From Bugula neritina (taxonomy: Eukaryota; Animalia; Bryozoa): a DNA stretch of 64,000 bases. Each line of letters starts with the position of its first letter. The first letter of the stretch is position 1. Of this stretch, positions 5,645-56,992 are shown in pieces. The notes beneath the pieces were generated by a model. The model had not been told where the DNA came from and ran no database searches. It saw only the letters and a program-made list of their open reading frames with translations. A program made the position numbers and the translations under genes. The stretch covers positions 6,898,707 to 6,962,706 of the forward strand of contig OZ037767.1 of assembly GCA_964035545.1 (NCBI GenBank). The letters run 5' to 3'.

Positions 5645-5729
<85 letters not shown>

Positions 5730-6035: not shown

Positions 6036-6101
<66 letters not shown>

Positions 6102-6402
6102 ATTATATATATAATATATAATATTATTATATGTATATATATATATTATATATAATATCATTATATATATATAATATATAATATTATTATATGTATATAT
6201 ATATATATTATATATAATATCATTATATATATATAATGTATATAATTTAATATATAATATAATAATATATTATATATGATATTATTATATATATAATATA
6301 ATATATAATATAATAATATATTTTATATATTATATATGATATTATTATATATATATAATATATATATAATATATATAATATAATATATAATATAATATTA
6401 TA

Positions 6403-6433
<31 letters not shown>

Positions 6434-8853: not shown

Positions 8854-8854
8854 G

Positions 8855-8872
8855 TGGTGGCAGCGGTGGGAT
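8855..8872 (+). promoter_or_regulatory. Primer-binding site complementary to the tRNA-Leu 3' end
   Basis: TGGTGGCAGCGGTGGGAT, 1 nt after the LTR, is the reverse complement of ATCCCACCGCTGCCA+CCA, the 3' end of metazoan tRNA-Leu(AAG/TAG). Confidence 0.88.
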
Positions 8873-8884
8873 AGTGCATCCAAG

Positions 8885-9838: not shown

Positions 9839-12800
9839 AACCTCCAGGGAAGAAGAAACGCAGGTCACCCAGACGGGTACCGCGTACTGGCAACCAACAG
9901 TGGCAACAGCCACGACGGACCAGCAAGGGGCTTCGCCCCGCGGCTGCCTTTTCTATGCCCCTTCACAACAGATTCACAGGGCTACAAGTCCAAGAATCTG
10001 GATGGGAGCACACAAAGGTAGCTGAGAATCTAGCCTCGGCACCCCCGAGGCCTACCTACCACCGCCCTAAGAGACCTCCTTCGCGACCCAAAGCGAGGGA
10101 GGTACTCCCTGCGAGAGTAAGGCCTGAAGGGAGAGTTCAGGTGCAGCCCCATGGGAACAGCTATTTCTTGCCCGGTAAACTGGAAGGCAAAGCTGTTACT
10201 TTCCTCATTGATTCGGGCTGTACCACAAACCTCTTAAGCCGCCAACTCTTCGACACCCTCAGTGCTAGGGTCAGGGGCGAGATGGAAGCATACGAAGGGG
10301 AATATGGCACCCTAGCTGACGGGTCGTGCCTTCCCTTCTATGGTATAATTGAGCTGACGGGACAAGTCCGTGATCAAACGATCCAAGAGACGTTCATCGT
10401 CAGTCAGCTCAAGGAGGATGCTATCCTCGGGATGCCGTTCCTTAAACGGCACGGATGTCACATAGATTTTAGCAGATCTGCAATGATGATGTCCGGGCGG
10501 GAACTCGCCTGCGTCGACAAGTTCGGCCGCCCTTTAGTGGGAGGTGTGCAAGTGGTACGCAACCGTATCATACCAGGCCGCTCCCGGGCTACCATTCACT
10601 GCAGGGTGAATAGTAGCCGGATCTCTGGACTCGGTGTGGTTGAAGGCGCGCACGAAAAGATCCAACTTGCCAGCAGTCTGAATCAGCTGACTGAGCAAGG
10701 GGAGATCTTAGTGCAGTGCGTCAACCCCTTTACCGAGCCTATCAAGCTCCCGGCTGGGTCGATGCTGGGCCGTTTTCACTCTGTTCAGGAGGGAGACGTA
10801 GGCCCGTCGCTGGGTGATGCAACAGAGGCACTCCCTCAGTGCCCTATTCAGGGACGAGGGGCAGTCCCAACACATCTCCGGGAGTTATACGAAACAGCCA
10901 GTGGCGGCTGCGCGAGTAACAGAGAACGCCAAGCTATGGCTAAGTTACTACGCGACTACGGTGATGTGTTCAGCAGCGGAGAGCATGACGTGGGACTGAC
11001 TGGAATTGTCAGACACGAAATACCGCTGACTGCAGGGACAGTCCCTGTCCGGCAGCCCACACGCAGGCTGGGGCCGGAGAAAGAGAAGGAGGTTAGCCGA
11101 CAAGTACGGGATCTTTTGGACCGGGGACTGATAGAGCCCGCCCACAGTGCGTGGAGCTCGCCAGTCGTACTGGTCCGGAAGAAAGACGGCAGTTGGCGGT
11201 TCTGTGTGGACTACCGCAAACTCAATAGCGTAATCATACAGGACGCCTACCCTCTACCTCGTATTGACGAGTCATTGGACGCCCTAGCCGGCAGCAAGTA
11301 CTTCAGTACGTTAGACTTGTTAAGCGGCTATTGGCAGGTTCCTCTGAGTCCCGACGCCCAAGAGAAAGCGGCGTTTATCACAAGGGACGGTTTGTGGAAG
11401 TGGAAGGTGCTGCCCTTCGGGTTAACCTCCGCCCCAGCCACCTTCCAGAGGCTGATGGAACAAGTCCTTAGCGGACTCCATTGGAAGACACTGCTGGTCT
11501 ACCTCGATGATGTCATCGTAATCTCTCCAGACTTCGAGACACATGTCAGTCGTCTGCAGGAGGTTTTCGAGAGACTCCGAGGTGCCGGTCTTAAGCTCAA
11601 ACCTTCCAAGTGCGCTCTATTGCAGCCGGAGGTCAAGTACCTGGGGCACGTTGTCGGTCGAAACGGCGTGGCAACGGATCCCGAAAAGGTACGGGCAGTA
11701 GAAGACTGGGTCACCCCCCAAGACTTGACCGGACTCCGGGCTTTCTTGGGGCTGGTAGGGTATTACAGGCAATACATACCAGACTTTGCGGGCATAGCCC
11801 AGCCGTTAAACCGGCTCACCGCAAAGGGAGTGACGTGGCAGTGGACTCCAGTCGAACAAGAAGCGTTCGACCGCCTCAAGGGCTGCCTACTAACGGCGCC
11901 CATCTTGGCCTACCCAGACCCCACTCTGGAGTACATCCTAGACACAGACGCCAGTGACCAGAATGTTGGCGCTGTGCTGTCACAAGTGCAGGAAGGCCGA
12001 GAGGTAGTAGTAGCCTACTACAGCAAGTCTCTCTCACCCGCTGAACGAAATTACTGCACTACCCGCAAGGAGCTGCTGGCAGTAATCAAGTCAGTGAAGC
12101 ACTTCAGACCATACCTATATGGCAGGAAGTTCCGGCTGCGTACGGATCATGCCTCGCTGATCTGGTTGTGCAGGAGAGCAGAGCCCTCTAGTCAGGTCGC
12201 CCGGTGGCTCGAAATCCTAGCTGAATTCTCATACCGGATCGAACATCGACCGGGCAAGAGACACAGCAATGCGGATGGGTTGAGTCGCCGACCTGACAGA
12301 GGTTGCAAACAGTGTCTCAACATCGAGAGGAGGGATGGAGGTCCCCCGCGATGCGAGTTGGAGATGCTGGCTCACCACGGAGCACCGTTTGACTGGGACC
12401 AAGGTCAACTCAGACAAAGAGTTGATGAGTCCCCGGAGGATGTACAAAACCTCCGCGCCAACCCTGTACTGGCCGGTAATGTTCGAGAGCTGAAGAAGCT
12501 CCAAGAAGAGCTGCCTGGAGTCGTGGCAGACATATACCGGGCCAAAAGGGAAGGGCGACGACCCAGCGAGGAACGCATACGACAGGGATGCGCCGAGTTC
12601 CGGCTATACTGTCAGCGTTGGGACTCGCTGCGGATCGGGCAGGATGGGTTACTAACCATCTCTCTAGCTGCCAGCGGCAGACACCCGGAAAGGAAGAGGG
12701 TAGTCTGTCCCACGGCCATCCGCCGTGAGTTGATTTGGGATACTCACAAACAGGCCCACGCAGGGGTCAAGAGAGTGATATCCAAATTACGACTCCGGTG

Positions 12801-14358
12801 GTATTGGCCGCAAATGGAGCGTGACGTCCGGCTCAGAGTCAAACAGTGTGAGATCTGCCAGGCCAGTAAGCATAGCCGCCCCCCTGGTGAAGCAGGACGG
12901 CGGAGGCTATACGCTGGTAGACCCTGGCAAGTAGTCGCTGTAGACCTGGTCGGACCCATGCCCCTGACCCCCAGAGGCAATAATTGGATCCTAGTACTAA
13001 CCGACCACTTTACTAGGTGGGCGGATGCTCTGGCTATCCCAGATGCATCAGCCCCAACAGTGGCCAGGGCACTAGACCAACATGTATTCTGTTATTTTGG
13101 GCTCCCCGAACAGATACACTCTGATCAAGGCGCTCAATTCCAGTCTCAACTGATGAGCGACCTTTGCCGCCTCTGGGGAGTAAATCAGAGCAGGACCACC
13201 CCCTACCACCCTCAAGGTAACGGGGTGGTGGAGCGCAACAACCGGATGCTAGGTGATGCGCTCCGGAGTCTCCTCCTTGGACGAGGTCAAGAGGAATGGG
13301 ATACGGTGTTGCCGCAAGTCATGCGTGCATACCGTAGCACCCCACACACCAGTACTGGTGAGACCCCAAACCTCTTGATGCTCGGGAGAGAGACTCGTGT
13401 CCCCGACCATCTCACCTATCACGTTCCAGAGCAAGATAACTCAGTCCACGAGTATGCCAGTGAACTAGTGGAACGGATGAAGGCCGCACACGATATACTG
13501 CGCCAACAGCAGTGGAAGGTGCGGCACGAAGATTCCGATGAACCACCCCTCTATCAAAGGGGAGATAAGGTGTGGATGGTCAATTACCGTAGGCGCCGCG
13601 GACAGGCTGATAAGCTGAAGCCTAAGTTCGTAGGCCCCTACGTGGTTGTCGAGGCTATGCCCAATCATACGTACAAGATTGAGCGCTCAGGACAGGTATC
13701 TATCCAGAATGAGTCTCGCTTGAAACCGTATTGGGCTAGCCCCGGCGGAGTGGGAGAAGCCCCCCCGTTGTTAGAGCCCAGGAGGCAGACAACAACGCGC
13801 GGGCGACGGCGGCATGGACCTGAATACGAAGTGGTCATACCGCGGGAAGAAAACTTGGTGAGAGAGGAGCGGCAGCTTCTACCAACAGAAGCGTGTCCGC
13901 CACCGCCAAGTCTAATTCCATCACTTCCAGAAACCGAGCCGGTTCCGGAAGTGCAAACCCCCACGGAGGGAGGGGCTCCATCCGGAGAACAAGAAGAGGT
14001 GACCGCTAACGGTGAAGTAGAGACGCCATTAGAGGCCCCTACTAACGAACCGGCAAGCGTGTCACCCCCCCTAGAAAGGGGACAGCGTACGAGGCAACCC
14101 CCCGCATACTTGAAGGACTTCATATGCGACTGCGTTAAAAGCGGCGTGTATGAAAGTCTAGGGGAAAACCGTACGAGAAAAGTATCGAGCAAATGTGGGA
14201 GTTGTCAACACCACGGAAATATCAACTTTTGTATCGGCGGAGATAGAAACAAAATTCATCCGCCGGGTGCACAAAGTCTTAATCACCCACCCCAACCACG
14301 TTGCTCGATCTTTTCATACGCTGATGCAGTCAAGAGTAGACGTGTTCCTAAGCAGTAG
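9727..14358 (+). CDS. pol: Pol polyprotein (aspartic protease, RT, RNase H, integrase), probably expressed as Gag-Pol by -1 frameshift
   Basis: LIDSGC protease; WRFCVDYRKLN, LPFGL and YLDD RT motifs; DTDAS RNase H; H-H-C-C plus VAVDL/HSDQG/VVER integrase. The ORF-track start is a non-ATG codon overlapping gag in the -1 frame. Confidence 0.97.
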   Translation: MLGVRKSRTFPPLLSLPKPGVKLPRPADVPTFRGPTMKPPGKKKRRSPRRVPRTGNQQWQQPRRTSKGLRPAAAFSMPLHNRFTGLQVQESGWEHTKVAENLASAPPRPTYHRPKRPPSRPKAREVLPARVRPEGRVQVQPHGNSYFLPGKLEGKAVTFLIDSGCTTNLLSRQLFDTLSARVRGEMEAYEGEYGTLADGSCLPFYGIIELTGQVRDQTIQETFIVSQLKEDAILGMPFLKRHGCHIDFSRSAMMMSGRELACVDKFGRPLVGGVQVVRNRIIPGRSRATIHCRVNSSRISGLGVVEGAHEKIQLASSLNQLTEQGEILVQCVNPFTEPIKLPAGSMLGRFHSVQEGDVGPSLGDATEALPQCPIQGRGAVPTHLRELYETASGGCASNRERQAMAKLLRDYGDVFSSGEHDVGLTGIVRHEIPLTAGTVPVRQPTRRLGPEKEKEVSRQVRDLLDRGLIEPAHSAWSSPVVLVRKKDGSWRFCVDYRKLNSVIIQDAYPLPRIDESLDALAGSKYFSTLDLLSGYWQVPLSPDAQEKAAFITRDGLWKWKVLPFGLTSAPATFQRLMEQVLSGLHWKTLLVYLDDVIVISPDFETHVSRLQEVFERLRGAGLKLKPSKCALLQPEVKYLGHVVGRNGVATDPEKVRAVEDWVTPQDLTGLRAFLGLVGYYRQYIPDFAGIAQPLNRLTAKGVTWQWTPVEQEAFDRLKGCLLTAPILAYPDPTLEYILDTDASDQNVGAVLSQVQEGREVVVAYYSKSLSPAERNYCTTRKELLAVIKSVKHFRPYLYGRKFRLRTDHASLIWLCRRAEPSSQVARWLEILAEFSYRIEHRPGKRHSNADGLSRRPDRGCKQCLNIERRDGGPPRCELEMLAHHGAPFDWDQGQLRQRVDESPEDVQNLRANPVLAGNVRELKKLQEELPGVVADIYRAKREGRRPSEERIRQGCAEFRLYCQRWDSLRIGQDGLLTISLAASGRHPERKRVVCPTAIRRELIWDTHKQAHAGVKRVISKLRLRWYWPQMERDVRLRVKQCEICQASKHSRPPGEAGRRRLYAGRPWQVVAVDLVGPMPLTPRGNNWILVLTDHFTRWADALAIPDASAPTVARALDQHVFCYFGLPEQIHSDQGAQFQSQLMSDLCRLWGVNQSRTTPYHPQGNGVVERNNRMLGDALRSLLLGRGQEEWDTVLPQVMRAYRSTPHTSTGETPNLLMLGRETRVPDHLTYHVPEQDNSVHEYASELVERMKAAHDILRQQQWKVRHEDSDEPPLYQRGDKVWMVNYRRRRGQADKLKPKFVGPYVVVEAMPNHTYKIERSGQVSIQNESRLKPYWASPGGVGEAPPLLEPRRQTTTRGRRRHGPEYEVVIPREENLVREERQLLPTEACPPPPSLIPSLPETEPVPEVQTPTEGGAPSGEQEEVTANGEVETPLEAPTNEPASVSPPLERGQRTRQPPAYLKDFICDCVKSGVYESLGENRTRKVSSKCGSCQHHGNINFCIGGDRNKIHPPGAQSLNHPPQPRCSIFSYADAVKSRRVPKQ
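9787..9831 (+). promoter_or_regulatory. Putative -1 ribosomal frameshift signal
   Basis: G_TTA_AAC (9787-9793) in gag frame, a 5-nt spacer, then an 8-bp stem CGGCCTGC (9799-9806) / GCGGGCCG (9824-9831, one G-U pair). Confidence 0.7.
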
Positions 14359-14382
14359 TTCAAACCATTTCACACATTCAGT

Positions 14383-15460
14383 ATGTCTTACGACAACAGA
14401 TCGTGGGGTGAGTTAACTATATCTTAATACGAAACTAGATTGCATCGCTCAGCTCTGACTCACTGAGTCAATCGAGCTGGAGATAGGTTAGTGAAATACC
14501 GTAGTAAGAACTCAGTTTGACTTAGAGATTTTTATAATCTCATTGCAATACGTGTTCTATCTGACTATTCACTACCATAAATCTCTACGAGGTAACTGAA
14601 TTAGGAGTTGCCAAGCTATTCAAGCTGACAACACGGCAGTGTACTGTATTAACACTGTTGAAACTTTTTCAGATTACACTCGACCCGCTACAACCAGGGT
14701 ACGGGATAGAACACTTCCCGCTCCGTATCCGGAGGAGTATGCCAGTGGTGACCGGCCTGAGCCACTACGCCGCCGTTGGCGGTGGGTGTCTCCACAAACA
14801 GAGGAAGAAATAGAGACGGCCTGGGGGTCCAGAGGACGGACGAGATGCCAGATCTGTGGTGAAGATTGCGCCTCTCACCGCTCCCTTAAACTACACGTCA
14901 ATGCTCATCTCCTACTGACATTCTGCCCCTGCGGGTACAATGATGTGTATCCCTACCCCGTCACCAGACACAGAGCGGCGGGCTGTTTCCCTGGAGAAAA
15001 CTACGTGGTCGACGCTAAGCTATACCTGGAGTTCCTCACACTTATACGACCTCTGGTGAAGAAGGCCATGCTGTTAGCCGTTCTGTCCTCGGGGTTCCAA
15101 CGTGTGTTAGACAACGCCCGCCAACAATCCCCGTTGGTGTCTGACCGCCCTCAAATTACATACACCCCCGAGGAAATTACATATCCAGAAGAAGGAGAGA
15201 TCTCCCCTACCCCGACGAAGAGACGAACCAGGTCCCCCAGTCCACCCTTGCGCCGCAGACGGACACCGTCCCCAGACCCAGTACGCCTAGCCACAGTAGA
15301 AGAACGCCTTCTGCGATTACAAGAAGAATTCACCCAGCTGGCACCAGATCTACTTAACACTACAACAGGACTCTTCCAGCTGAAGGGATCCGTATGCCGT
15401 ATGAAACGGAAACTGCGTACATGCCAAGCCAAGCACCGGCGTGCCCAACAAGGACTCTAG
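14383..15460 (+). CDS. Third Gypsy ORF, predicted two-exon gene (14383-14407 + 14673-15460, ~270 aa): C2H2-like zinc finger(s), RS/SP basic tract, C-terminal coiled coil
   Basis: ATG TCT TAC GAC AAC AGA TCG TGG G|GTGAGT donor joins in phase to the TTTTTCAG|AT acceptor, giving MSYDNRSWDYTRP...; CQICGEDCASHRSLKLHVNAH; RRTRSPSPPLRRRRTPSP; heptad-like LATVEERLLRLQEEFTQL. Confidence 0.72.
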
Positions 15461-15747
15461 TTGACTACCCGGAGTACTCCAACTCCGCCTCTTGGGAGAA
15501 GCCAAGAGGTCATGTAAATGTTTGACTGCTTAACAGGTTATCCCCTGTCTAACACCACAGCTAGCTAGTATTCCTCGTCTATCTACAGCTGGCCAATTGT
15601 ATGCAACGGATCGTTACGATGACTCTGTATTATTATTATGTCTCTTCCTGTATATTATGTGTTATTTTTGTCCACTGATGTATGTAGTTATTAATGAATG
15701 TTTTTTTTATATATATCAGAAAGATGGCTTTCTGCTGGTGGGGGCGG

Positions 15748-16052
15748 TGTGGTGGTTCGTGGAACTACCAGCAGCACAACATGTAGGGTCGCGTAATTGA
15801 CCCGGAACAATGAATAGCCAATTAGCGTAGTTGATAGTTAGCAGCAATTGTAGTTTCCCGCTGCTAACTCAGTCGAAGCTAGAGTGTGAAATAGATTAGA
15901 TGTGTAACTTGTTTGGAAATAATGTATCGTTTTTGTAATGTATAATTGTGTGTAAAATATACTCGTTCACTCGACTTATCCTGGTGCAGTTCTATAGTAA
16001 ATAAATAGACTCTCTGGATAGCACATCAACCCCAAATCTGAAAATTATAACA
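15748..16052 (+). repeat. 3' LTR of Gypsy element
   Basis: Direct copy of 8549-8853, immediately preceded by the G-rich tract GGTGGGGGCGG (15737-15747, putative PPT). Confidence 0.97.
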
Positions 16053-45271: not shown

Positions 45272-45375
45272 AGTAGTAGCAGGTGGATGGTCCTGGCTCA
45301 CTCTTCTTCCACCGTCGAGTCTTCGACTCGCCAGTGTCAGAAGAGTGATCCAGGACGCATCCACCTGCTACTACT
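45272..45375. repeat. Terminal 104-bp imperfect palindrome at the Polinton left end
   Basis: AGTAGTAGCAGGTGGATG-GTCCTGG-TCACTCTTCT-CGAGTC/GACTCG-AGAAGAGTGA-CCAGGAC-CATCCACCTGCTACTACT. Confidence 0.9.
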
Positions 45376-45567
45376 CTATTAGTAATATTATGAAAAAGTA
45401 GTGTAATATTATAAAAAAGTAGTGTAATATTATAAATTTTATTTAGAAAAATATTTTTTTTAAAATAAGAAAAAAAATATTTTTAGGGTGGATGGTTCTA
45501 GCTCACAATACGATACTATTAGTAAGATAATAAATTATTATACGTTAAGAATATAATAATTTAGTGT

Positions 45568-46344
45568 TTAAACGTCATAACTTGGAAATGTTGGTAAAGA
45601 TTCAGTAGATTCGGTTATATCTCCATCATTCGTTGATAAAACTAATTTATTACCAACTGCTCCTTGTAATTTAGGAATAGCGTAATTATTTATATTATTT
45701 ATTGTAATAAGATCTGAAATATTTATATCCGTTTCTACAATATTACCATCACTCGAAAGCATTAATAATTTACCTCCGATTATTGGTTGTATTTTATTCA
45801 TAGCGAAATTATTTATATTACTAGTCGTAATAATATCGCTAACGCTTAAACTACTATCCACAACATTACCCGAAGTAGTTGAAACGGTTAATTTTTCATT
45901 CGCGGGTTGTATTTTATTTATAGCGAAATTATTTATATTACTAGTCGTAACAATATCGCTAACGCTTAAATTACTATCTACAATATTACCCGTATTAGTT
46001 GATACGGTTAATTTTTCACTCGGGTCTCGTATAAGAGGTACGGCGTAATTAGATACATTAGTTTTTGTAACGACATCATCAACTTTTAAATCGCTATCTA
46101 TAACGCGTCCATCGTCGGTTGATATAGTTAATTGATTAATAGGGTTTTGTATTTTAGGCATACTCGTATCGTCAACGTATTTTTTTGTAGCCGCGTCTTG
46201 ATCGTCAGCCGGATTAATAACTCTAGATATTTTATTTTCACCCATATCTAATGTACCCGTAAGAGTACTACTACCGTTTATTAAAACGAATTTTTTTGTA
46301 TCTATTTTTGTTTTTTCGCTTCCTCCGAATTTATAAACACTCAT
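45568..46344 (-). CDS. Fibre-like repeat protein
   Basis: LTGTLDMGENKISRVINPADDQDAATKKYVD (phage tail-fibre/adhesin-stalk-like motif) followed by ~4.5 repeats of 40-41 aa. Confidence 0.65.
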   Translation of the reverse strand: MSVYKFGGSEKTKIDTKKFVLINGSSTLTGTLDMGENKISRVINPADDQDAATKKYVDDTSMPKIQNPINQLTISTDDGRVIDSDLKVDDVVTKTNVSNYAVPLIRDPSEKLTVSTNTGNIVDSNLSVSDIVTTSNINNFAINKIQPANEKLTVSTTSGNVVDSSLSVSDIITTSNINNFAMNKIQPIIGGKLLMLSSDGNIVETDINISDLITINNINNYAIPKLQGAVGNKLVLSTNDGDITESTESLPTFPSYDV

Positions 46345-46829
46345 TTATAATTGTAGTAAAGTTTTAATGACACTAATTCAAACGGTAAAGCTATAGGCGC
46401 GTTGTCATTAACCGTAATGTCATTGGGTTTACGACTAGTATAATCGTTTGAGCAGTGTAATACTAATCCAATATTTTTATCGCTCTCAATATATTCCAAC
46501 ATAGGTATTTTTACGCGCGCAACGCCTCCTTGAATTATATATTCTTTAGTATTGTGTTCGAGAGGGTTATTAACATTACCGATGATTAAAGTTAAATTTT
46601 TATCTTTCCAATATAAAGAATTATCATTATTAGCTGGAAGATGTTGAAATTCTAATAAAGCGTATTTTAGTTCTATTGGTTTATCCACTATATATCCCAA
46701 TAATATTCCTATATTAATTGTTGTGCTAAAAGATTGTATAAAAACATTATTATTTTTAGTTACGACTCTTTCGATATAATTTTCTTTTTTAGCTTTCGCT
46801 AATGATTTTCCAAATTTATAAACACTCAT
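46341..46829 (-). CDS. Hypothetical protein, possible second spike/fibre-head protein
   Basis: 162 aa, beta-rich looking; the N-terminal MSVYKFG is identical to the neighbouring fibre-like ORF. Confidence 0.55.
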   Translation of the reverse strand: MSVYKFGKSLAKAKKENYIERVVTKNNNVFIQSFSTTINIGILLGYIVDKPIELKYALLEFQHLPANNDNSLYWKDKNLTLIIGNVNNPLEHNTKEYIIQGGVARVKIPMLEYIESDKNIGLVLHCSNDYTSRKPNDITVNDNAPIALPFELVSLKLYYNYK

Positions 46830-46832
46830 TTA

Positions 46833-47591
46833 TTACGGTATATAAAATTCGTCTAACCCGTGTCTATATCTTCCATTATTTTTTGAGGAAGAAAGATCTA
46901 AAGTAATAAAGCCGTGAGGTTTTTGCCATCCTTTATAACAAAAGTTTTTAAATTCGTTTAACGTTAAATCTCCGTTTACGTGATCTTGATATATATGATT
47001 TAAATTTTTTCCGTCTTGAGGAAATAAGTAAATAAAATTAGCGTTTTCTCGAATAGTATTTCTAGGCAGCTTAAAATAATTTTGCGACAAATAAAAACAA
47101 TCGACGTTATTATGTCGTCCTCTTACGTAATAACTTTCGCAAGTTTTTTGTTTTTCCAACATTAAATCATCGAATATTATTAAATTTTTATTACTAGCGT
47201 CTAATTCGCTAGGATCATAAACGTCGTCACTAGATTCGATAAATTCGGCGTCTATATTACCGTTACCCCTACTATTTTTTAAAACACGATTTACGTTTAT
47301 ACCCGAATTTATTATCGCGTCACTATTTTTAAAAAAATTTAAAATTTCTTCTTTAGTTAATTTACGTTCGAAAGCCTTCCTCATATTTATATATTCGGGT
47401 TGAGAAAGACTTTTACCGTAAATCATAAGTTTATCGTAATCGAGCCAATTAGGTTGTAATAGTAAGTTACAAAGTAACGTAGTTTTACCGCATCCAGACT
47501 TTCCAACGATAAGACCTCTTATGCTTTTAGGAAGTAAAGGATTATTATTACGATTAATTTCGTTTTTCCACGAAAGATTTTCTATTTCCAT
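46833..47591 (-). CDS. Genome-packaging ATPase (A32-like, FtsK/HerA superfamily)
   Basis: Walker A GKSGCGKT, Walker B LIIFDD, RGRH arginine motif, LSQNY, IRENAN. Confidence 0.95.
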   Translation of the reverse strand: MEIENLSWKNEINRNNNPLLPKSIRGLIVGKSGCGKTTLLCNLLLQPNWLDYDKLMIYGKSLSQPEYINMRKAFERKLTKEEILNFFKNSDAIINSGINVNRVLKNSRGNGNIDAEFIESSDDVYDPSELDASNKNLIIFDDLMLEKQKTCESYYVRGRHNNVDCFYLSQNYFKLPRNTIRENANFIYLFPQDGKNLNHIYQDHVNGDLTLNEFKNFCYKGWQKPHGFITLDLSSSKNNGRYRHGLDEFYIP

Positions 47592-47603
47592 TTATTATAA
47601 TAA

Positions 47604-48968
47604 ATGTATTGTTGTAAGTGTAAAACTAAAACGAAAACTCTTAATTACGAAAAGAGAGTAAGTAAAAATAATAGACTAATGGGTTACGGTAATTGCGGTC
47701 AATGCGGATGTAAAAAGACTACATTTGTTGGGTCGGGTTTAGCTAATAATTTAATAAATAATTTACCCTTTGAATTGCATTATCCGGGTCACAATTTTTT
47801 AGGACCGGGTACTAAATTAAATAAGCGTTTAAATGACGACATGACTCCTAAAGAATGGAGTAAACCGGTAGATCGAGACGACGCTATAGCCATGAGACAT
47901 GACGTATGTTACGCGCTTAATAAAGATACTAAAACTAGAAACGAAATATGTGATAAAAATATGCTAGACGAACTGAAAGCTATACCTAATCCTACACCCG
48001 CTGAACAGCGACACAGTCGTTTCGCCTCGGCAATAATAGGTGCGAAAAAACGCTTAGGATGGGGATGGACGAACGAGTTAGCCGAAGAACTGCATAAACC
48101 GGTACAAAAAAAATTTCGTAAAAGACGAGTTTGGGTATCGGGTATCGATAATATTTGGGCGGCTGACTTGGTTGATATGACTGAATTCGCTAAATTTAAT
48201 AACGGTTATAAATATTTATTAACGGTAATAGACGTGTTTTCAAAATACGGTTGGATAATACCTTTAAAAAATAAGACTGGAAAAGCCGTTGCTTTAGCTT
48301 TAAAAACGATTTTAACTCGTCGTAAGCCACAACATTTATGGGTTGACAAGGGTAAAGAATTTTATAATAAAGACGTAAAGTCTTTAATAGACTTATATTC
48401 TACGGAAAATGAAGAAAAGTCTAGCGTAGTAGAGAGGTGGAATAGAACTATGAAAGAGCGAATGTTTAAATATTTTTCGGCTAATAATACTTATAAATAT
48501 ATAGACGTACTAAAAGATTTAGTAAAACGGTATAACGAGACTAAACATTCGTCTATTGGAATGACACCGATTGAAGCTAGTGATCTTTCTAATGAAAACA
48601 AAGTACGCGTGAAATTATATCCAAACTTACCAGCGCTTTCTAAACCTAAATTCGCTATAGGTGATAGAGTACGTATACCGCGTAAAAAACGAACGTTTGA
48701 AAAAGGTTATACCGTTAGATGGACGGAGGAAGTGTTTACTATAAGTAAAATATTATATACTAATCTGACTACTTATAAATTAACTGACTCGGGTGGAGAA
48801 GAAATTCAAGGATCTTTTTACGAACAGGAATTACAAAAGACGAGTCAAGAAATGTATAGAATAGAGCGCGTAATTAAAAAGAAAGGTAAAAAGGCTTTAG
48901 TAAAATGGTTAGGTTATCCCGATTCTCAAAACTCTTGGGTAAATTTAAACGTTTTAGAACGATTATAG
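47604..48968 (+). CDS. Zn-ribbon + parvovirus-type phospholipase A2 + retroviral-like integrase + chromodomain fusion
   Basis: CCKC...CGQC; HNFLGPG and DAIAMRHDVCY (PLA2 Ca-loop and HDxxY); WAADL, WVDKGKEF, VVERWNRT (DDE); YRIERVIKK...VKWLGYPDSQNSWV chromodomain. Confidence 0.92.
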   Translation: MYCCKCKTKTKTLNYEKRVSKNNRLMGYGNCGQCGCKKTTFVGSGLANNLINNLPFELHYPGHNFLGPGTKLNKRLNDDMTPKEWSKPVDRDDAIAMRHDVCYALNKDTKTRNEICDKNMLDELKAIPNPTPAEQRHSRFASAIIGAKKRLGWGWTNELAEELHKPVQKKFRKRRVWVSGIDNIWAADLVDMTEFAKFNNGYKYLLTVIDVFSKYGWIIPLKNKTGKAVALALKTILTRRKPQHLWVDKGKEFYNKDVKSLIDLYSTENEEKSSVVERWNRTMKERMFKYFSANNTYKYIDVLKDLVKRYNETKHSSIGMTPIEASDLSNENKVRVKLYPNLPALSKPKFAIGDRVRIPRKKRTFEKGYTVRWTEEVFTISKILYTNLTTYKLTDSGGEEIQGSFYEQELQKTSQEMYRIERVIKKKGKKALVKWLGYPDSQNSWVNLNVLERL

Positions 48969-49160
48969 TGGACACAAATGTAGACACAAATGTGGACACT
49001 AGACACAAAAGTGGACACAAACACATTTGTGTCCATAAAAAGTAGACACAAATGTGTTTGTGTCCATAAAAAGTAGACACAAAAGTGGACACAAATGTGT
49101 TTGTGTCCATAAAAAGTAGACACAAAAGTGGACACAAATTAAACGTAAAGTGGACACAAA
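48968..49160. repeat. Intergenic array of GT(G/A)GACACAAA units in both orientations
   Basis: About 11 forward and 3 reverse (TTTGTGTCCA) copies forming repeated imperfect palindromes. Confidence 0.92.
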
Positions 49161-49174
49161 TTAATATATAATAA

Positions 49175-49981
49175 ATGAGTTACTTAAAGATTCACGACCC
49201 TATAAAAAGAGATAAAACCGTACAAGATTTTATTTCTCGAAAGAATAAATTAAAAGAAAATTTTAAACGAGAACGCGAGCGAGAATTAAATGCCGCGATG
49301 GCTCAAGAAAAATATTTTGAACCCGTAATTGCTTCGCAAGCTCAAACGACTGACGCGTTAAAACAATTGCTTACATTACCCAATTATAATGTTCAACCGG
49401 CTATAACGGATGGAGTTATAAATTTAGACGAATTTACTCAAAACGCTTTAGCTGGCTTAGAACCCGGCGCTTATAACGTAAAGTGGGATGGTAATAGACA
49501 CGTTATTGGTACAAAACCTATAAGCTTTAACGATGGTAAAATAATTTTTGAAAATGAAGAATATCCGGCGACTAGAGGACTTTTAAGTCTTTTAACGCGT
49601 AAAACGCCTATAGGATACGATGATAATGATTTAGCGAATTACGCTAATATACTCGATAATAGCGGCGCTATATATCAAAGTAAACACGGTCCTATAGATA
49701 AAAATAGTGAAAAATGGAAAAATATTGTTAGACCTATTTGGGAACAATTATATCCTCAGAGAGCGAAACTCGCCGATAGTAAAAAAGCTAAAAGGCAAGT
49801 CGGTGATGGAGTAGTATATTTATCGTCTGATCCTAACGCTTTAGTAGAACGACTCGAACTTTTAATTTCTAGCGCTAAAGCCGGAAATACGGGGGTACGA
49901 AACGAAATTGTGTCTATATTAGACGAATTACTTAGAATGAAAATTATTACTCGTGACTATTATAAAAGTATTCTCGTATAA
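49175..49981 (+). CDS. Conserved Polinton/adintovirus virion-associated protein of unknown function
   Basis: 268 aa; the C-terminal GDGVVYLSSDPNALVERLELL...KAGNTG.RNEI..ILDEL motif is one I recognise from Polinton proteins. Confidence 0.7.
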   Translation: MSYLKIHDPIKRDKTVQDFISRKNKLKENFKRERERELNAAMAQEKYFEPVIASQAQTTDALKQLLTLPNYNVQPAITDGVINLDEFTQNALAGLEPGAYNVKWDGNRHVIGTKPISFNDGKIIFENEEYPATRGLLSLLTRKTPIGYDDNDLANYANILDNSGAIYQSKHGPIDKNSEKWKNIVRPIWEQLYPQRAKLADSKKAKRQVGDGVVYLSSDPNALVERLELLISSAKAGNTGVRNEIVSILDELLRMKIITRDYYKSILV

Positions 49982-49984
49982 TAA

Positions 49985-50296
49985 ATGTACGTTTACGATA
50001 AAAGACAACGATTACAAAGACACTACGCCGGTGGTGGAATATTTGATACCATTAGGAATGTAGTAACTAAAATAGCTAGTAATTCCAGCGTAAGAGAATT
50101 AGGTAAAAAGGCTATAGCTAAAGCGGGTACCGCGGCCGGTGAAAAAATTGTTAACGCGATTAAAAAAAGAAGACAAAAAAAGTTAAACGCTAAAAGTCAA
50201 GCTATATTACAAAAACTTAATTTAGCTAAAGATATATTAAATAATAATAATATAAGCAATATTTTAGAAGGTTCTGGACAAGCTATAGCTTATTAA
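49985..50296 (+). CDS. Small basic protein with GGG|IF site and amphipathic helix (adenovirus pVI/core-like)
   Basis: YAGGGIFDTIRNVVTKIAS; lies directly upstream of the major capsid gene, as pVI does in adenoviruses. Confidence 0.6.
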   Translation: MYVYDKRQRLQRHYAGGGIFDTIRNVVTKIASNSSVRELGKKAIAKAGTAAGEKIVNAIKKRRQKKLNAKSQAILQKLNLAKDILNNNNISNILEGSGQAIAY

Positions 50297-50317
50297 GAAA
50301 TTATTTTACTATAATAA

Positions 50318-51592
50318 ATGGACTCTCTAAATATTACACAAAAAATTGTACTCGATACGAGCGTAGAGCGTGATCAGGTACACGAATACGAACCCGTAAC
50401 GGGAACGAATTTAAATACTCCCAGTGAAATTAGAATAGTTATTAATCAACAAGATTTGTACGTTCAACCGAGTAAAAGTTATTTGATTATCGAAGGTCGT
50501 TTAACTAAAGCCGACGGAACCGCATACGCCGACGCCGACTTAGTAACGTTAACGAATAATGGTATGGCTTATTTGTTTAAAAGTATTAGATATCAACTCG
50601 ATGGACACGACTTGGAATATATAAATAATCCCGGACACGCTTCGACCATAATGGGTTTACTAACTTATCCCGACGACTACGGTAAGTCGAGAGGTCTTAA
50701 TCAGTTGTGGTCAAAAGACACTACCGCAGCCGCTGCCGCCGCTAATTTAGGTTTTAATGCGCGTCAAATTTATATTATACAAAAGCCAGATCCTAAAGGT
50801 ACTTTTAGTATTAAAGTGGATCTTAGACATTTGTTCGGATTCGCCGATGATTACGAAAAAGTATTATACGGTATAAAACATCAACTAACGCTAGTACGCG
50901 ATACCAACGATAACGCTATTTATAGAGCTAACGGTGTAGACGCGGGAAAAATAACGTTGAATAAAGTGTCGTGGTGGATGCCTCACGTAACGCCTAGTTT
51001 TGAAATGAAGCATAAACTCTATAAAATTATAGAGAGTAAGGCGCAACTACCCCTAATTTATAGATCTAGATGGTGTGATAGTATCGCGGTGCCGCAGACT
51101 ACTAATTTTACGTGGCGTTTGGGTTCTAGAGGAGATACGGAAAAACCTAAATATATTATCGTAGGTTTTCAAACGGATAAAACTGAAAGTCAAACGGCTA
51201 ATCCGGCCGTATTCGATCACGTTAACGTTAAAAGCGTATACGCGATGCTAAACAGCGAGCGGTATCCCGAAGTTGATTACGATATAGATTTTGCTAAAAT
51301 GAAGTTTAGTAGAGTGTACGGAGACGCTTCTAAATTTTGCGGAGAATATTACGGTATAAACGAGCTAATCGCTTATTCAAACGTATTACCTTCGGAATAT
51401 AAAGATCTTTACGCTTTGTTCGTAATAGACGTTAGTAAGCAAAGCGAGGCTCTTAAAAGTAGCGTAGCCGATATTCAATTGAGAGTTCAGTTTAGTCAAA
51501 ATGTACCGGCTAATACTCAAGCTTACGCGCTAATTTTATCGGATAAAACTATGTCTCTCAGTTCCGATGGAAACAATTTAAAAGTTATATAA
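50318..51592 (+). CDS. Major capsid protein (double jelly-roll, hexon-like)
   Basis: 424 aa beta-rich; HEYEP..GTNLN, PSKSYLIIEG, EKPKYIIVGFQT, LNSERYP, LFVIDVSKQ motifs typical of Polinton MCP. Confidence 0.88.
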   Translation: MDSLNITQKIVLDTSVERDQVHEYEPVTGTNLNTPSEIRIVINQQDLYVQPSKSYLIIEGRLTKADGTAYADADLVTLTNNGMAYLFKSIRYQLDGHDLEYINNPGHASTIMGLLTYPDDYGKSRGLNQLWSKDTTAAAAAANLGFNARQIYIIQKPDPKGTFSIKVDLRHLFGFADDYEKVLYGIKHQLTLVRDTNDNAIYRANGVDAGKITLNKVSWWMPHVTPSFEMKHKLYKIIESKAQLPLIYRSRWCDSIAVPQTTNFTWRLGSRGDTEKPKYIIVGFQTDKTESQTANPAVFDHVNVKSVYAMLNSERYPEVDYDIDFAKMKFSRVYGDASKFCGEYYGINELIAYSNVLPSEYKDLYALFVIDVSKQSEALKSSVADIQLRVQFSQNVPANTQAYALILSDKTMSLSSDGNNLKVI

Positions 51593-52349
51593 ATGGATAA
51601 TAGAATTTTAAGAGAAATTGCTGATAATACGGCCTCTAAACAAACGATGACTATAGGAGTTACCGATACTAAAACGAGAATAATTACTCAACTTAATCCG
51701 CCTATAGAATTAAATAAAAAAAAAATAAGAAATGTGTCTTATTAGTTTAGATACGTTTTATTCTTTTCCAAACATTAGTACCGATAGAAATTCCTATAGA
51801 TGGTCTAAAGACGGTGGTACTACGTGGCATTTAGTTTCGTTACCAGTCGGAGTGTACGAATTAGATCAATTAGAAGAAGCTATTCAAGACGAAATAGTAA
51901 AAGAGGGGGGTAATAGAAACGGTATTACTTTACAAGCTAATAAAGTAACTTTTAGAATTATACTTAAATTAAAACCTAATTACCGAATAGATTTTAACGT
52001 TGAAAATTCTTTAAGAGACGTTTTAGGTTTTGACGCGGCGATATATAATCAACCATATATCGAAGCTACAAACATAGTAAATATTTTAAATATAAACGCT
52101 ATACACGTACAAGTTGATTGTATTAACGGAAGTTATATCGATGGTACTTATAAACCCGTTATCTATTCATTTTTTCCGAGCGTTAGTCCGGGATATAAAA
52201 TAATAGAAAAACCTCATAATTTAATATACCTACCCGTTCACGTTAAATATATTAAGACGTTAACCGTTACGGTAACCGATCAAAAAGGTAATTTATTAGA
52301 TCTTAGCGGTGAACAACTTTCGATAAGATTTCATTTAAGAGAAGTTTAA
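51593..52349 (+). pseudogene. Minor capsid protein (penton), split by a frameshift/stop at ~51716-51728
   Basis: ATG 51593 gives MDNRILREIADNT...LNPPIELNKKK; the EMCLISLDTFYSFPNI... body is in the +1 frame behind an A10 run and a TAA. Confidence 0.78.
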
Positions 52350-52361
52350 TGTATTATATAA

Positions 52362-52931
52362 ATGGGTTATTGCGAAATTATAGGAAACGTGCCGCAGGCG
52401 CAAAAACAAAAAATAATGAACGCTTATAGAAGCGGTAAGGGTTGCGTTATTAAATTGCCTCTCGAAAGCGGAAATGATAAACTAGTCGTTACGAAAACGC
52501 AAAACGATAATATTTTAAAAGCGTTAAACGCGAATAAAAAAAATATAACGCTCGAAATGTCTCCGTCGTTAGTAAAAACTAACGCGTCAATGAGCGGAGG
52601 ATTTTTAGGAGCTCTATTGGGTATAGCCACGAGAGTAATACCTACGTTATTAAAAACTATTATACCGGGTGTACTTTCAGGAGCCGCTAGCGCCGGAGTC
52701 GAAAGAGCTATTAAAGGTAAAGGTCTTTATTTGAAAAAAGGCGGATGCGTATGTTCCGTAGAACCTAATTTAAACGGTTCTATTACTTTAAAACCAGTCG
52801 CGTCGTCTAATTTAATGAAGGGTAACGGTTTATATTTAAAACAAGGTTCTAGCTATATAAAAGGCGAAGGTTTAATTTTAGGTCCGAATAGTCCGTTTAA
52901 AAACATTCCTCTTTTAGGTATGCTATTATAG
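52362..52931 (+). CDS. Putative protease-processed, membrane-active core protein
   Basis: MSGG|FLGALLGIATRVIPTLLKTIIPG amphipathic peptide after an adenain-type MxGG site; repeated KGxG|L motifs; SPFKNIPLLGMLL tail. Confidence 0.68.
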   Translation: MGYCEIIGNVPQAQKQKIMNAYRSGKGCVIKLPLESGNDKLVVTKTQNDNILKALNANKKNITLEMSPSLVKTNASMSGGFLGALLGIATRVIPTLLKTIIPGVLSGAASAGVERAIKGKGLYLKKGGCVCSVEPNLNGSITLKPVASSNLMKGNGLYLKQGSSYIKGEGLILGPNSPFKNIPLLGMLL

Positions 52932-52950
52932 TTTAAGAAAACATATATAA

Positions 52951-53343
52951 ATGTCAACAGTAATTACTTATAAAAGCCTCGACGGCACCCCAATTACCGA
53001 AACGATATATAAAACTTCCGAATACGAAAAACGAATGTACGAAAGCGGTGATTTAAAAGAAATAATTATATATAAAAATTTTAATATATTAGACGAAATG
53101 ACTAATCCGTCTAACGAACGTGATTTACTCGAAGAACGCGTTTATACTAATAAAAGAGAAATTATTTATAAAGAAAATGATGGAAAATTAAAAATAAAAA
53201 CTATTTACAAAACTAAAGAAATAATTCAAGAACTTAACGTAGGTTTAATGAATTACGCGGCGGCTAGAATACCGTCATTCTTTACTAAACTAAAATACGC
53301 CGAAGACGAAATAGAAAAAAGAAGAAATGACGCTTTACATTAA
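52951..53343 (+). CDS. Hypothetical accessory protein
   Basis: 130-aa ORF with TAAATG start and element-like codon usage; no recognised motif. Confidence 0.6.
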   Translation: MSTVITYKSLDGTPITETIYKTSEYEKRMYESGDLKEIIIYKNFNILDEMTNPSNERDLLEERVYTNKREIIYKENDGKLKIKTIYKTKEIIQELNVGLMNYAAARIPSFFTKLKYAEDEIEKRRNDALH

Positions 53344-53431
53344 AATATTATAGTTAAAGAAAACATATATAAATATACGGATAATTTTTATATTGAACTT
53401 CCTTTTTTAATTAATTATAATATATAATTAA

Positions 53432-53911
53432 TTAACAAACGTTGTTACGAGCGATTATTATGTCGCTTTTTTTATTCGATATTACGTTATTAATATTTTT
53501 ATATTTTTCGGTTATAGCGTCGTACTCTCGTTCGTCTATATGAGAGTCGCTTAAAAATTTCGATAACATAGAATTAATTTCTAATTTTGAATCTTTTATA
53601 AAGGTATATATATCTAAATACATTAACGTAGATTTAATTAATTTAGTATCTTGAGAAGAAATAGAAGTAGTAATTACGCTCATTATACTTACTATTATAG
53701 ATAATGGTAATAACGTTTGTTTAGTAACGTTAGCGTTTATTAACGCCGTAATAATAACGCCGCATATTAAATTCGTTGTACCGCATAATCCCGAAATTAT
53801 TTTTAACGATTTCGATAGCCAATTAAAATGATTAAGTTTTTGTTCGTATTCGTTTTCTAATTTAATAATTTCATCGTTTAAGAGTTCTAATTTTTCTCGT
53901 CGAAAGTCCAT
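53432..53911 (-). CDS. Two-transmembrane helical protein
   Basis: 159 aa; coiled N-terminus, two hydrophobic segments, C-terminal SKFLSDSHIDEREY; TAAATG start. Confidence 0.65.
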   Translation of the reverse strand: MDFRREKLELLNDEIIKLENEYEQKLNHFNWLSKSLKIISGLCGTTNLICGVIITALINANVTKQTLLPLSIIVSIMSVITTSISSQDTKLIKSTLMYLDIYTFIKDSKLEINSMLSKFLSDSHIDEREYDAITEKYKNINNVISNKKSDIIIARNNVC

Positions 53912-53953
53912 TTATATAAAAAAATGATTTTTATTATTTTATTATTTTATAAT

Positions 53954-54181
53954 ATGAATCTTACCGTTGAATTACTCGATAAACTAATAGCTGAAACCGA
54001 ACAAAAAAAATATACACCGTTACTCGAATATTTATATATACCAGTAATTAATAATATATCTCTTAAAGAAATTAATTTTAGAACGAGAAAACAAATTCCT
54101 AACATTAATAAATATTTTTATATAAAAAGTATTTTAAAACGCGAAGCTTATAAACGAAAAGAAGAAAATAGAGACGTATAA
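53954..54181 (+). CDS. Small hypothetical protein
   Basis: MNLTVELLDKLIAE...; the start could alternatively be 53924; lacks the TAAATG context. Confidence 0.4.
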   Translation: MNLTVELLDKLIAETEQKKYTPLLEYLYIPVINNISLKEINFRTRKQIPNINKYFYIKSILKREAYKRKEENRDV

Positions 54182-54272
54182 CAGCCCACGTTAGTTTCTC
54201 AGTATTATTACTTATTTTACATAAGTAATAATATTAAAAATTGATATTACTATTAAAGAATATATTATATAA

Positions 54273-56992
54273 ATGGAGTTCAATACAAAAATTACCGTAA
54301 AAGCTTTAAAGGCTTTAGCTAAAGAAAGAGGATTGAAACGATATTCTCGATTAAAAAAAGCCGAACTTATACGGCTATTATCGCCTATGGACGAACCCGT
54401 TCCAAATATAGGACAAGCCCCGTTAATACCTACACCCGTAAAAAAAATTATGCGAGAAATATTTACGCAAACTACGCGTAATATAAAAAAATGGGTTATA
54501 AAGCCAATTACAAAAATTATAAATCCAATTAAGGATAAAATTATGGCTTTATATAATCAGCCTAAACTTAAAGAACAAGCCGCTAACGGTTGGTTTCAAA
54601 CTTATGAAATTAAAGGTTTACCCGGATACGATATAGATTCGTTTTGCAAATTAGTAAAACTAAACGTACTAGAGTTATTAAAACCTACTATAAAAGCTAA
54701 AATATTTTTATATTGCGAAGTGAAAAAGCATAATATAAGTACCGGAGAAATTATTATAGAAACTATGCCATTTACATCAAACGTTGAAATTATATTACCT
54801 TCTACGAATGTTGATGAAATATATGATGAAATAATTGAACGTATAAAAGAAAATTTCGCTTCGTTAAACGCTAAAGGAAGTAGTTGGACGTTTAAAGCCA
54901 TTAAAAAAATGGAAATTAATATTAATAAATATCAACCTCTTAACGGATCATCGTGGATTGATCTTCCAAAAGAAATTAAATTAAAGAAAGCCGTAATAAA
55001 TCCAAAAAATAAAGACGATAAATGCTTTATGTGGGCCATTTTAATGGGAGTTTATCCGGTTAATAAAAATGTTGAAAGAATTAGTAATTATAAAGAGCAC
55101 GTTAATAAATTATCGTGGGAAGGAGTAGAATTTCCGGCTACGAAAGAATCCATTGACGCTTTTGAAAAAGTTAATCCCTCAATAGGAATTAATGTATTTA
55201 TGTGGGACAGTAAAACGATAAATTTATGGAGAAAAACTAGCAGTCAGAATAAAATTATAAATTTACTTTATATAACCGATGGCAAAAAAAATCATTATAC
55301 GTATATTAAAAATTTAAATAAATTACTCGGTTCGCAAATAAATAAACGCGTTAACGCTAAACATATTTGCGTAAATTGTATGAATTCGTTTCGATCTAAC
55401 GAATCATTAAAAAAGCATCAAGATTGGTGTTTAAGAAACGATAGCGTGACTACGACATTTCCAAAATTAAAAGATAAAATAAAATTTCAGTCTAGTCATT
55501 ATTGTCGTGGTATGAGAGTACCGTTTGTAGTATACGCGGACTTTGAATGTTTTACAAAGCCTATACAAGGCTGTAATCCTAATTTTAAAGAAAGTTATAC
55601 TAATCAATATCAACAACACGAACCGTCGGGTTTTGGATATTATATAGTAAGCATTACCGGCGAGTGTAATTATAGAAGTTATACTAAAGAAACTGAAGAC
55701 GAAGATATTGGCGAACAATTTATAAGACTATTAGAATTTGACATTAAAAATATTTATAAAAAACATAAATTCGCTAAAACTATGCAAATTACGACTGACG
55801 AGCAAAACTCTTTCGAGTTGGCCGAAATTTGTTATATATGCGAAGAAGAATTAAGTAATGACAGAGTAAGAGATCACTGTCACTTAACCGGAAATTATAG
55901 AGGAGCCGCGCATAAAAATTGTAATTTAAATTATAAAATTCCAAAATTTTATCCAATATTTATTCATAACTTGTCGGGTTATGACGCCCACTTATTTATT
56001 AAAAATTTAGGCGGTGAACCTTCGTGTATACCTAATACCGAAGAAAAATATATATCTTTTAGTAAAAAATTATTAGTAGACGAATTTACCAATAAAGAAG
56101 GTGAAAAAATTAAAGTTACGCGTGAAATTCGCTTTTTAGACTCATATAAATTTATGAGTTCTAGTTTAGCGAGTTTAGTGGCGAATTTAAAACGCGATGA
56201 CTTTAAACACTTAGGTGAATATTATAAAAAAAAACAATTAGACTTGGTATTAAGAAAAGGAGTATTTCCGTATGACTATTTTAATAATCTAAGCGTGTTG
56301 AATGAAACGTCTTTACCACCTAAAGAAAAGTTTTATTCAAGCTTAACCGAGCAAAATATTTCGGAAGAAGATTATATACACGCTCAAAAAGTTTGGCAAG
56401 AATTTAATATGAGAACATTTAAAGAATATCACAACTTATATATGAAAGTTGATGTATTACATTTAGCCGACGTTTTTGAAAACTTTAGAAACGTGTGTTT
56501 AAAATATTACAAATTAGATCCCGCTTGGTACTATACGGCCCCGGGTTTAAGTTGGGACGCTATGCTTAAAACTACTGAATTAAAGTTGGATCCAATTACC
56601 GACGTTAACCAACTACTTTTCTTTGAAAAGGCTATTAGGGGTGGTGTAAGTATGATCAGTCATAGACACGCTAAAGCCAATAATAAGTATATGGAAAATT
56701 ATAACGCTAGCGAACCTAGCAGTTATATTACTTATTTAGACGCTAATAATTTATACGGTTGGGCTATGTCCAAAAATTTACCTACGGGTAATTTTAAGTG
56801 GCTAACCGAAAAGCGATGTAAAAACTTGGAAAAAAGTTTAAACTTTCCACCTAGCTTTTTAGAAGTGGATTTGGAATATCCTAAAGAGTTACACGACTCG
56901 CATAAAGATTATCCGTTTTGCCCCGAAAGGTTAATAATTAACAAAGTAGAAAAGTTAGTGCCAAACTTAAATAATAAAAAAAATTATATTAT
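54273..56992 (+). CDS. Protein-primed family B DNA polymerase, interrupted by BEL insertion
   Basis: N-terminal helix-extension-helix, NPKN.D.KCF...HY (OTU-like Cys/His), C2H2-like finger, ExoI YADFE, EndoVII-like RDHCHLTG.YRGAAH..CN, ExoII HNLSGYD, motif A YLDANNLYG. Motifs B and C are absent because foreign sequence starts after NKKNYI. Confidence 0.95.

Follow-up and report, generated by a model that had tools for sequence, protein, structure and literature searches.

A start-codon-linked TAAA signal and hairpin gene ends in an animal Polinton of Bugula neritina: candidate marks of transcription by a large-DNA-virus polymerase

There are virophages in which all genes carry the late promoter of the helper virus. 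The CroV late promoter is reported to precede every mavirus gene and hairpin 3' ends to occur at 16 Sputnik genes (PMC6723459), the Polinton-like virus (PLV) Gezel-14T has been described as helper-dependent (PMC10120064), and PLVs of the mavpol2 capsid clade have been found in entomopoxvirus occlusion bodies (PMC11296320). For animal Polintons (Mavericks), of which no virion had been seen according to a recent account (10.64898/2026.06.19.733378), the mode of gene expression bears on whether they are autonomous nuclear viruses or not. The Polinton/Maverick copy considered here occupies positions 45272..56990 of a 64,000-nucleotide stretch of the bryozoan Bugula neritina (assembly GCA_964035545.1, contig OZ037767.1, positions 6,898,707 to 6,962,706, forward strand), hereafter called the window and used for all coordinates. 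Its left end is intact and its right part has been lost inside the gene of the protein-primed B-type DNA polymerase (pPolB). With described Polintons (adintoviruses, Polintoviricetes) it shares an A32 ATPase, a PLA2 domain and an rve integrase, here joined with a chromodomain, a double jelly-roll major capsid protein (MCP), the truncated pPolB and a 5'-AG terminus.

Several described systems offer points of comparison. In vaccinia intermediate promoters the AT-rich core spans -26..-13 and is separated by a 12-bp spacer from TAAA, which occupies -1..+3 and is read directly by the polymerase (PMC12917281); the late promoters carry TAAAT(G/A) and a closer, T-containing core 5-7 bp from TAAAT (PMC5294985). 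Initiators of the TAAAT/TAAAN kind are known to yield 5' poly(A) leaders through slippage in vaccinia and in yeast linear elements (PMC6211774), and promoters of African swine fever virus are described as having TATA and poly(T) instead (PMC7163114). Transcripts with hairpin 3' ends have been reported for Mimiviridae (PMC4402537) and for the invertebrate iridovirus IIV-6, and particles resembling iridoviruses are on record from marine invertebrates (PMC5923455). No description of a promoter or upstream motif was found in those open-access main texts on Polintons that were searched, although an earlier mention may exist in Repbase or in subscription papers; within the open literature searched, the TAAA start signal and the hairpins described below appear to be new for animal Polintons. 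The reading preferred here, to which a probability of about one half is given, is that TAAATG, or more generally T-A(2-6)-ATG, would serve as the initiator at which the RNA polymerase of some Nucleocytoviricota member, present by co-infection, starts transcription, the element being an integrated virophage-like satellite.

The analysis covered 13 genes, with the nested or repeat-derived open reading frames (ORFs) at 48874-49110 and 54602-54901 excluded. The genes and their starts are as follows.

45568..46344, minus strand: ORF258, repeat protein with a weakly tail-fibre-like N-terminus; start TAAATG
46341..46829, minus strand: ORF162, function unassigned; start TAAATG
46833..47591, minus strand: A32-like packaging ATPase (PF04665, E=2e-7); start TAAATG
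47589..47606: perfect palindrome of 18 nt holding two back-to-back TAAATG starts, the ATGs 12 nt apart
47604..48968, plus strand: PLA2-like domain, rve integrase and chromodomain (PF08398, PF00665, PF00385); start TAAATG
49175..49981, plus strand: ORF268, conserved Polinton protein, DUF8207-like; start TAAATG
49985..50296, plus strand: ORF103, small, basic, conserved; start TAAATG
50318..51592, plus strand: double jelly-roll MCP (PF21738, E=3e-58); start TAAATG
51593..52349, plus strand: presumed minor capsid protein, so named from size and position, without a Pfam match; start TAAATG, its TAA being the MCP stop; frame broken at an A-run at about 51710-51725
52362..52931, plus strand: ORF189, conserved; start TAAATG
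52951..53343, plus strand: ORF130, accessory gene between two copies of a header block; start TAAATG
53432..53911, minus strand: ORF159, accessory; start TAAATG
53924..54181, plus strand: ORF85, accessory, in a back-to-back pair with ORF159, from which 12 nt separate it; start T-A6-ATG
54273..56990, plus strand: pPolB with an endonuclease VII-like insert, cut short; start TAAATG

An earlier note on this DNA had claimed that 12 of the 13 genes begin with TAAATG, and all 12 were confirmed by position. The word is found at 12/13 starts compared with 9/219 other ATGs on both strands (Fisher p=9.7e-14), and a null model built from the upstream 20 nt of each start predicts only 1.3 occurrences (P(>=12)=1.1e-11); chance in AT-rich DNA was rejected as its source by these tests. 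Since the thirteenth gene (53924, plus strand) begins with T-A6-ATG, the form T-A(>=2)-ATG covers 13/13 starts as against 16/219 other ATGs. All 12 TAAATG starts read ATAAATG, ten of them TATA(A)TAAATG, and T stands at -3 in 12/13 starts. The ATGs of two divergent gene pairs lie 12 nt apart, and the start at 51593 is genuine, although its gene is frameshifted.

The short intergenic gaps which the same note described were also found, with 8/12 junctions of 21 nt or less. Its caveat that some instances double as stop-start overlaps applies to 51593, where TAA is the upstream stop, and as this is only 1/12 the caveat is a minor one; general stop-start coupling was rejected on the same count. At 46829 and 49985 the TAA is a second one behind the stop; at 46344 the ATG shares bases with the stop codon of the upstream gene; and the remaining eight starts have no adjacent upstream stop. 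An upstream word TT(A/T)AAGA, proposed for 50318, 52951 and 54273, was present at the latter two and also before 52362; at 50318 there is only TTAAGA. It occurs 18 times in the element without a fixed position, and a looser TAARR word is found 14-30 nt upstream of 9/13 window starts at variable spacing.

Six of the window starts contain AATAAA and six contain TATAAA, which would suit a reading of the hexamer as a polyadenylation signal that belongs to the upstream gene and overlaps the ATG behind it. The signal is, however, equally present at the four divergent starts, which lack an upstream gene, and by this this reading appears largely refuted; AATAAA is moreover missing from all 18 convergent ends (2.7 expected). 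The polyadenylation reading is regarded as highly improbable.

Relatives were collected by MCP alignment. Of the 81 loci obtained, one is a viral contig and the others are the 80 best among 503 confirmed metagenome stretches. A start was accepted only if homology to a window protein reached the N-terminus, and removal of near-identical upstream regions reduced 168 starts to 111 non-redundant ones in 50 loci; these loci are kin, so that the p-values given for them overstate independence. TAAA is found within the last 9 nt before the ATG at 96/111 starts, compared with 41.6+-4.9 in 2000 shuffles (maximum 59). T-A(>=2)-ATG accounts for 77/111 of the relatives' starts and strict TAAATG for only 17/111. 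The order of the genes is not the same in all relatives, whereas each start retains the signal, and the same signal precedes polymerase, integrase and capsid genes alike. The baculovirus-type TAAG (10/111 against 14.1 shuffled) and the mavirus TCTA (11/111 against 16.2) were not enriched and were rejected as candidates. A conserved TAATG/CATTA word was not noticed, no search having been aimed at it.

Counted from the T of TAAA at the relatives' starts, the stretch -21..-13 was A-rich and nearly free of GC (6-12%), in comparison with 29-36% GC at -8..-4, a paired core/spacer difference of 0.17 (n=100 starts, p=3e-9). The contrast was observed in all three tandem gap classes, <16, 16-44 and >44 nt (GC 0.06-0.12 vs 0.29-0.36), in a test on 11 largely intact elements with ORFs of at least 75 aa, some false starts included, and the AT-only block keeps its spacing even inside upstream coding sequence. 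The start codon forming one word with the signal, TAAA(T)G, and the AT-only block about 12 nt upstream in the relatives resemble vaccinia promoters, the spacing being like that of the intermediate class. TAAAT(G/A) at the start codon in 12/13 window starts (only 17/111 in relatives) is the likeness to poxvirus late promoters, from which the family differs in that no T-containing core 5-7 bp upstream was seen, the Polinton block being A-rich and about 12 nt away. It differs from poxvirus promoters generally in its variable A-run, and from poxviruses in that the Polinton encodes no polymerase.

An A-rich invertebrate Kozak context together with stop-start coupling, acting on polycistronic or read-through RNAs of a compact AT-rich genome, might produce some of this pattern without any promoter. 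A at -3..-1 is the usual invertebrate translation context and was found at 79-88% in the relatives; 4/12 window starts adjoin an upstream stop, and one contig from a run guessed to be RNA spans three starts, a contig being unable to show a transcript. Such a context alone does not, however, predict the T before the A-run, seen in 77/84 starts against a background of 63-71%, nor the T at -3 in the window and its sister lineage. The signal is also present at divergent starts without an upstream gene, the AT-only block is held at fixed spacing even within coding sequence, and the signal follows each start through the changes in gene order. Translation context as the whole explanation is therefore considered quite unlikely.

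A quick tree built from 58 MCP rows places the window with a 17-locus sister lineage (SH-aLRT 94, below the 95 mark), in which 24/29 starts are strict TAAATG, across six different genes, and 24/29 have T at -3. Because the strict word occurs in only 2/103 starts of the other 33 loci, it is best described as a lineage-wide shift of a family-wide T-A(2-6)-ATG signal, limited to the window together with a single sister lineage.

The signals might alternatively be relics, inherited from a virophage-like ancestor or a past helper and no longer used in that way, with any expression due to host read-through. The window copy is truncated and frameshifted and the sister-lineage copies are heavily decayed, which speaks for this view. 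Against it stand the exactness of the signal in 13/13 genes, including accessory genes that have no homologue in relatives, and the concerted change across genes in one lineage, which together argue for recent selection. In addition, the ratio of observed to expected (o/e) CpG is 2.08 in the element compared with 0.35 in the left flank, which indicates a recent arrival of this copy; among relatives the ratio ranges from 0.14 (locus L001) to 1.77 (L035). A relic status is accordingly held to be very unlikely.

The 3' ends of the gene runs carry a second type of signal. In the window, a hairpin is found at each of the five run ends that are intact, and the following were recorded.

45529..45565: hairpin of 13 pairs with a loop of 9, AT-only, shortly 3' of the ORF258 stop, closing the minus-strand run ATPase-ORF162-ORF258; RNAfold z -1.4 (100-nt window)
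48967..49160: short tandem repeats with inverted copies, hairpin-forming (49012-49109), 3' of the integrase stop; folding z -6.0
53403..53439: AT-only hairpin, 16 pairs, loop 3, between the convergent ORF130 and ORF159; z -1.5 and -1.1
54201..54235: hairpin, 14 pairs, loop 5, 3' of ORF85; z -3.2

Perfect or one-mismatch hairpins were located at 33/200 junctions (about 1 after shuffling), with five in 162 kb of coding interior. By a second hairpin score they were present at 26/93 free gene ends, 6/109 tight junctions and 0/106 coding windows. The AT-rich stems of 10-17 bp soon after stop codons and the lack of AATAAA at convergent ends are shared with Mimiviridae and IIV-6, from which the Polintons differ in having a hairpin at only 26/93 free ends; the IIV-6 promoter word AAAAT, furthermore, is not fused to the ATG. 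T-run terminators were rejected, T7 being depleted (1 vs 11.3) and A7 likewise, and a G-U bias in the hairpins was rejected as well (3 G-U vs 6 A-C).

AATAAA is not avoided in the coding strands, either in the window (32 vs 28.8 expected, o/e 1.11, 10.8 kb), where the pPolB part alone holds 12 copies, or in the relatives (171 vs 144.7, o/e 1.18, 169 kb). In yeast, AT-rich cytoplasmic genes have been reported to be fragmented by nuclear polyadenylation (PMC4431711), and the retention of AATAAA speaks against transcription of these genes by RNA polymerase II (Pol II) in the nucleus. A nuclear reading would take the signal as a real promoter of each gene, read by host Pol II, perhaps aided by a factor which the element encodes, or else by the polymerase of a nuclear virus, yielding ultra-short or leaderless mRNAs from an autonomous element. 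The copy encodes an integrase, so that the element must reach the nucleus, and no RNA polymerase of its own. A TATAWAW-like word stands at -7 to -10 in 6/13 window starts, A-tracts are enriched upstream in the relatives, the family is covered by contigs of runs guessed to be RNA, and polintovirus genes were reported as expressed in control coral colonies (PMC11131425).

These points have to be set against the position of the TATA words. Pol II starts 28-34 nt from a TATA box, so that TATA at -7 to -24 would place the RNA start inside the coding sequence. TATAWAW is located 28-34 nt from TAAA at only 4/100 of the relatives' starts, and at -40 from the ATG at 1/13 window starts. No transcription-factor-like protein was recognized by Pfam among the 46 proteins scanned, and the predicted fold of ORF268 matched one DUF8207 protein only and no transcription factor. 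Splice acceptors at the starts were rejected, YAG being rare within the last 12 nt before the ATG (9/111 starts). Nuclear promoters of this kind are rather unlikely as the explanation.

Reading by a Nucleocytoviricota-type polymerase, which the earlier note had put forward, is consistent with the TAAA at the ATG, the AT-only block, the rarity of Pol II-type TATA, the retained AATAAA and the 3' hairpins, and is kept here in a modified form. The part of the proposal that named the poxvirus late initiator proved too specific: a start-linked signal of large-DNA-virus type is supported, but its family form is T-A(2-6)-ATG with intermediate-like spacing, strict TAAATG is a one-lineage trait, and hairpin ends are known for mimiviruses, Sputnik and iridoviruses. 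We know of no poxvirus from marine invertebrates, and the helper need not be a poxvirus.

Under the helper-polymerase reading, each gene would have its own promoter of about 25 nt, in which the AT-only block is followed, after some 12 nt of spacer, by TAAA. Transcription would begin at the first A of TAAA, with slippage on the three template Ts, and the resulting non-templated poly(A) leader would replace the T at -3 and offer the ribosome a short A-rich leader. T at -3 is a poor animal translation context, which fits a 5' end rewritten by slippage, as at TAAAT/TAAAN initiators. Tightly packed genes would be read through to the shared hairpin of each run, without AATAAA-directed cleavage, and the polymerase of the helper would act on the Polinton promoters in trans, as in virophages. 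The prediction for each gene is exact to a single base: RNA starting in the AAA of TAAA, extra 5' As, and an end at the mapped hairpins. Contigs from four sequencing runs were compared over 49145-53340, with four starts lying to the left and three to the right of this interval; no poly(A) loose end at TAAATG was seen among the 22 contig loose ends listed, which is evidence neither way.

A number of observations weigh against this reading. The RNA start and end sites and the helper itself are postulated, a word such as TAAA is of low information content where DNA is AT-rich, and the loci, being kin, do not count as independent samples. At the 12 starts of the window itself the core/spacer contrast is lacking (GC 0.20 vs 0.17), and it is also weak at divergent junctions (0.09 vs 0.16). 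Internal TAAATG in the window genes (4 vs 13.5 expected) is not significantly depleted once TpG avoidance is allowed for (p=0.08). Three of the five run-end hairpins in the window are AT-only with folding z-scores that are not significant, and hairpins mark only the 26/93 free gene ends mentioned above. Their mismatches have no G-U preference on the sense strand, and for this reason the hairpins may act in DNA. ATTAAA is depleted in the relatives' coding strands (o/e 0.75), and the AATAAA test is a comparison with expected counts only, without a Pol II-transcribed positive control. In published work, polintovirus hallmark genes are described as expressed in both control and heat-stressed coral colonies (PMC11131425), and in one model the ancestor that these viruses have in common is taken to be autonomous (PMC10328495).

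Parallels are also found in small DNA elements of two kinds. Like Sputnik, mavirus and the virophage-like PLVs, the Polinton is a small integrating DNA virus without an RNA polymerase, with one signal per gene and hairpins after genes; it differs in its Polinton-type capsid, the lack of TCTA enrichment and a host that is likely an animal, and its satellite lifestyle is putative. The MCP matches PF21738 only, its relatives are animal Polinton capsids, and no virophage-type (Maveriviricetes) MCP was recognized. The yeast elements pGKL1/2 are likewise pPolB-based linear DNA with a TAAAN initiator, slippage, and stem-loops before termination sites (PMC6211774), but code for an RNA polymerase and a capping enzyme of their own and possess a conserved sequence upstream; neither was found in the Polinton.

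Viral contigs were also scanned for the back-to-back start layout, and 80 loci of at least 120 were analysed. None of the 80 had both back-to-back ATGs opening ORFs of at least 100 aa; strict starts were seen in 15/104 ORFs of the 17 giant-virus loci vs 22/378 in the other loci. The loci L138, L212 and L213 belong to G001, an uncultured 419-kb giant-virus bin with an NCLDV capsid and its own Rpb2, for which no named relatives were found. On a further contig of this bin, T-A(>=2)-ATG was present at 21/33 starts, 12 of them strict, with hairpins at 9/33; back-to-back starts also occur in the bin. G001 was selected by the motif and has no link to the host of the window, which counts as a further reservation; it shows only that the TAAA-start grammar exists outside poxviruses. 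The window MCP alone had no match in viral contigs, and scans with the integrase and pPolB yielded distant Polintons in numbers too small for a comparison with group 1.

A wider and more tentative proposal is that a widespread group of animal Polintons might be provirophages switched on by large DNA viruses of marine invertebrates, which is possible but doubtful at present. Animals would then carry virophage-like proviruses as protists do, and these Polintons could possibly form an inherited antiviral system. The form of the promoter would track the helper lineage, with strict TAAATG in one clade and T-A(3-6)-ATG in the rest, and might serve as a barcode for finding helper viruses.

Turning to the element itself, four further features were noted.

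45272..45375: left terminus, its first bases 5'-AGTAGTAG; folds as a long hairpin with imperfect pairing, where a terminal inverted repeat is presumed to start
52924..52953, plus strand: header block ending in TAAATG, 5' of ORF130
53346..53374, plus strand: second header copy, 1 mismatch in 29 nt, no ATG behind it
54273..56990, plus strand: 918-aa 5' part of pPolB, 43-47% identical to homologues of 1240-1320 aa in related loci

With the right end gone, the terminal repeat and the 6-bp target duplication are unpaired, and AGTAGTAG marks the left end only. The two header copies suggest that accessory genes were gained as cassettes behind a duplicated 29-nt header. It was also observed that other copies, in 3/4 of the sequencing runs compared, have a different sequence right after the header ATG. 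The family is multi-copy in one sequencing run (2362 contigs matched), and the closest named MCP relatives, from scallop and bryozoan, are 55-57% identical.

The PLA2 domain is reported as common in group 2 Polintons (10.64898/2026.06.19.733378), and for this reason the window copy is likely a member of group 2, an assignment based on its PLA2 and endonuclease domains and not on a tree with reference elements. The integrase domain PF00665 scores above the cut-off. The PLA2-like protein and the integrase are fused in one ORF (47604-48968), and most intact relatives have two nearby ORFs instead. No adenovirus-like cysteine protease was recognized by Pfam in the retained part, the region after pPolB being lost; one relative has a weak PF00770 match just after pPolB, that is, within this region. 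A short tandem-repeat array also precedes the ORF268 homologues in L083, L031, L035 and L032, with differing repeat units.

Two elements outside the family may be mentioned. L091 is PLV-like and distant, its ATPase and integrase being 26% identical; several of its starts have AT-rich TATA/TAAA words, and it carries a gene for a Tet/JBP-like oxygenase. In another invertebrate Maverick, TTAAAGAAA was noted as a start word together with hairpins, an unchecked observation. Elsewhere in the window, an intact-looking Gypsy-type LTR retrotransposon of 53% GC lies at 8549-16047, its LTRs identical over the 300 nt compared, and a foldback-like element at 4905-7309 has 346-nt inverted arms (90%) around a TA-rich core of 1.7 kb.

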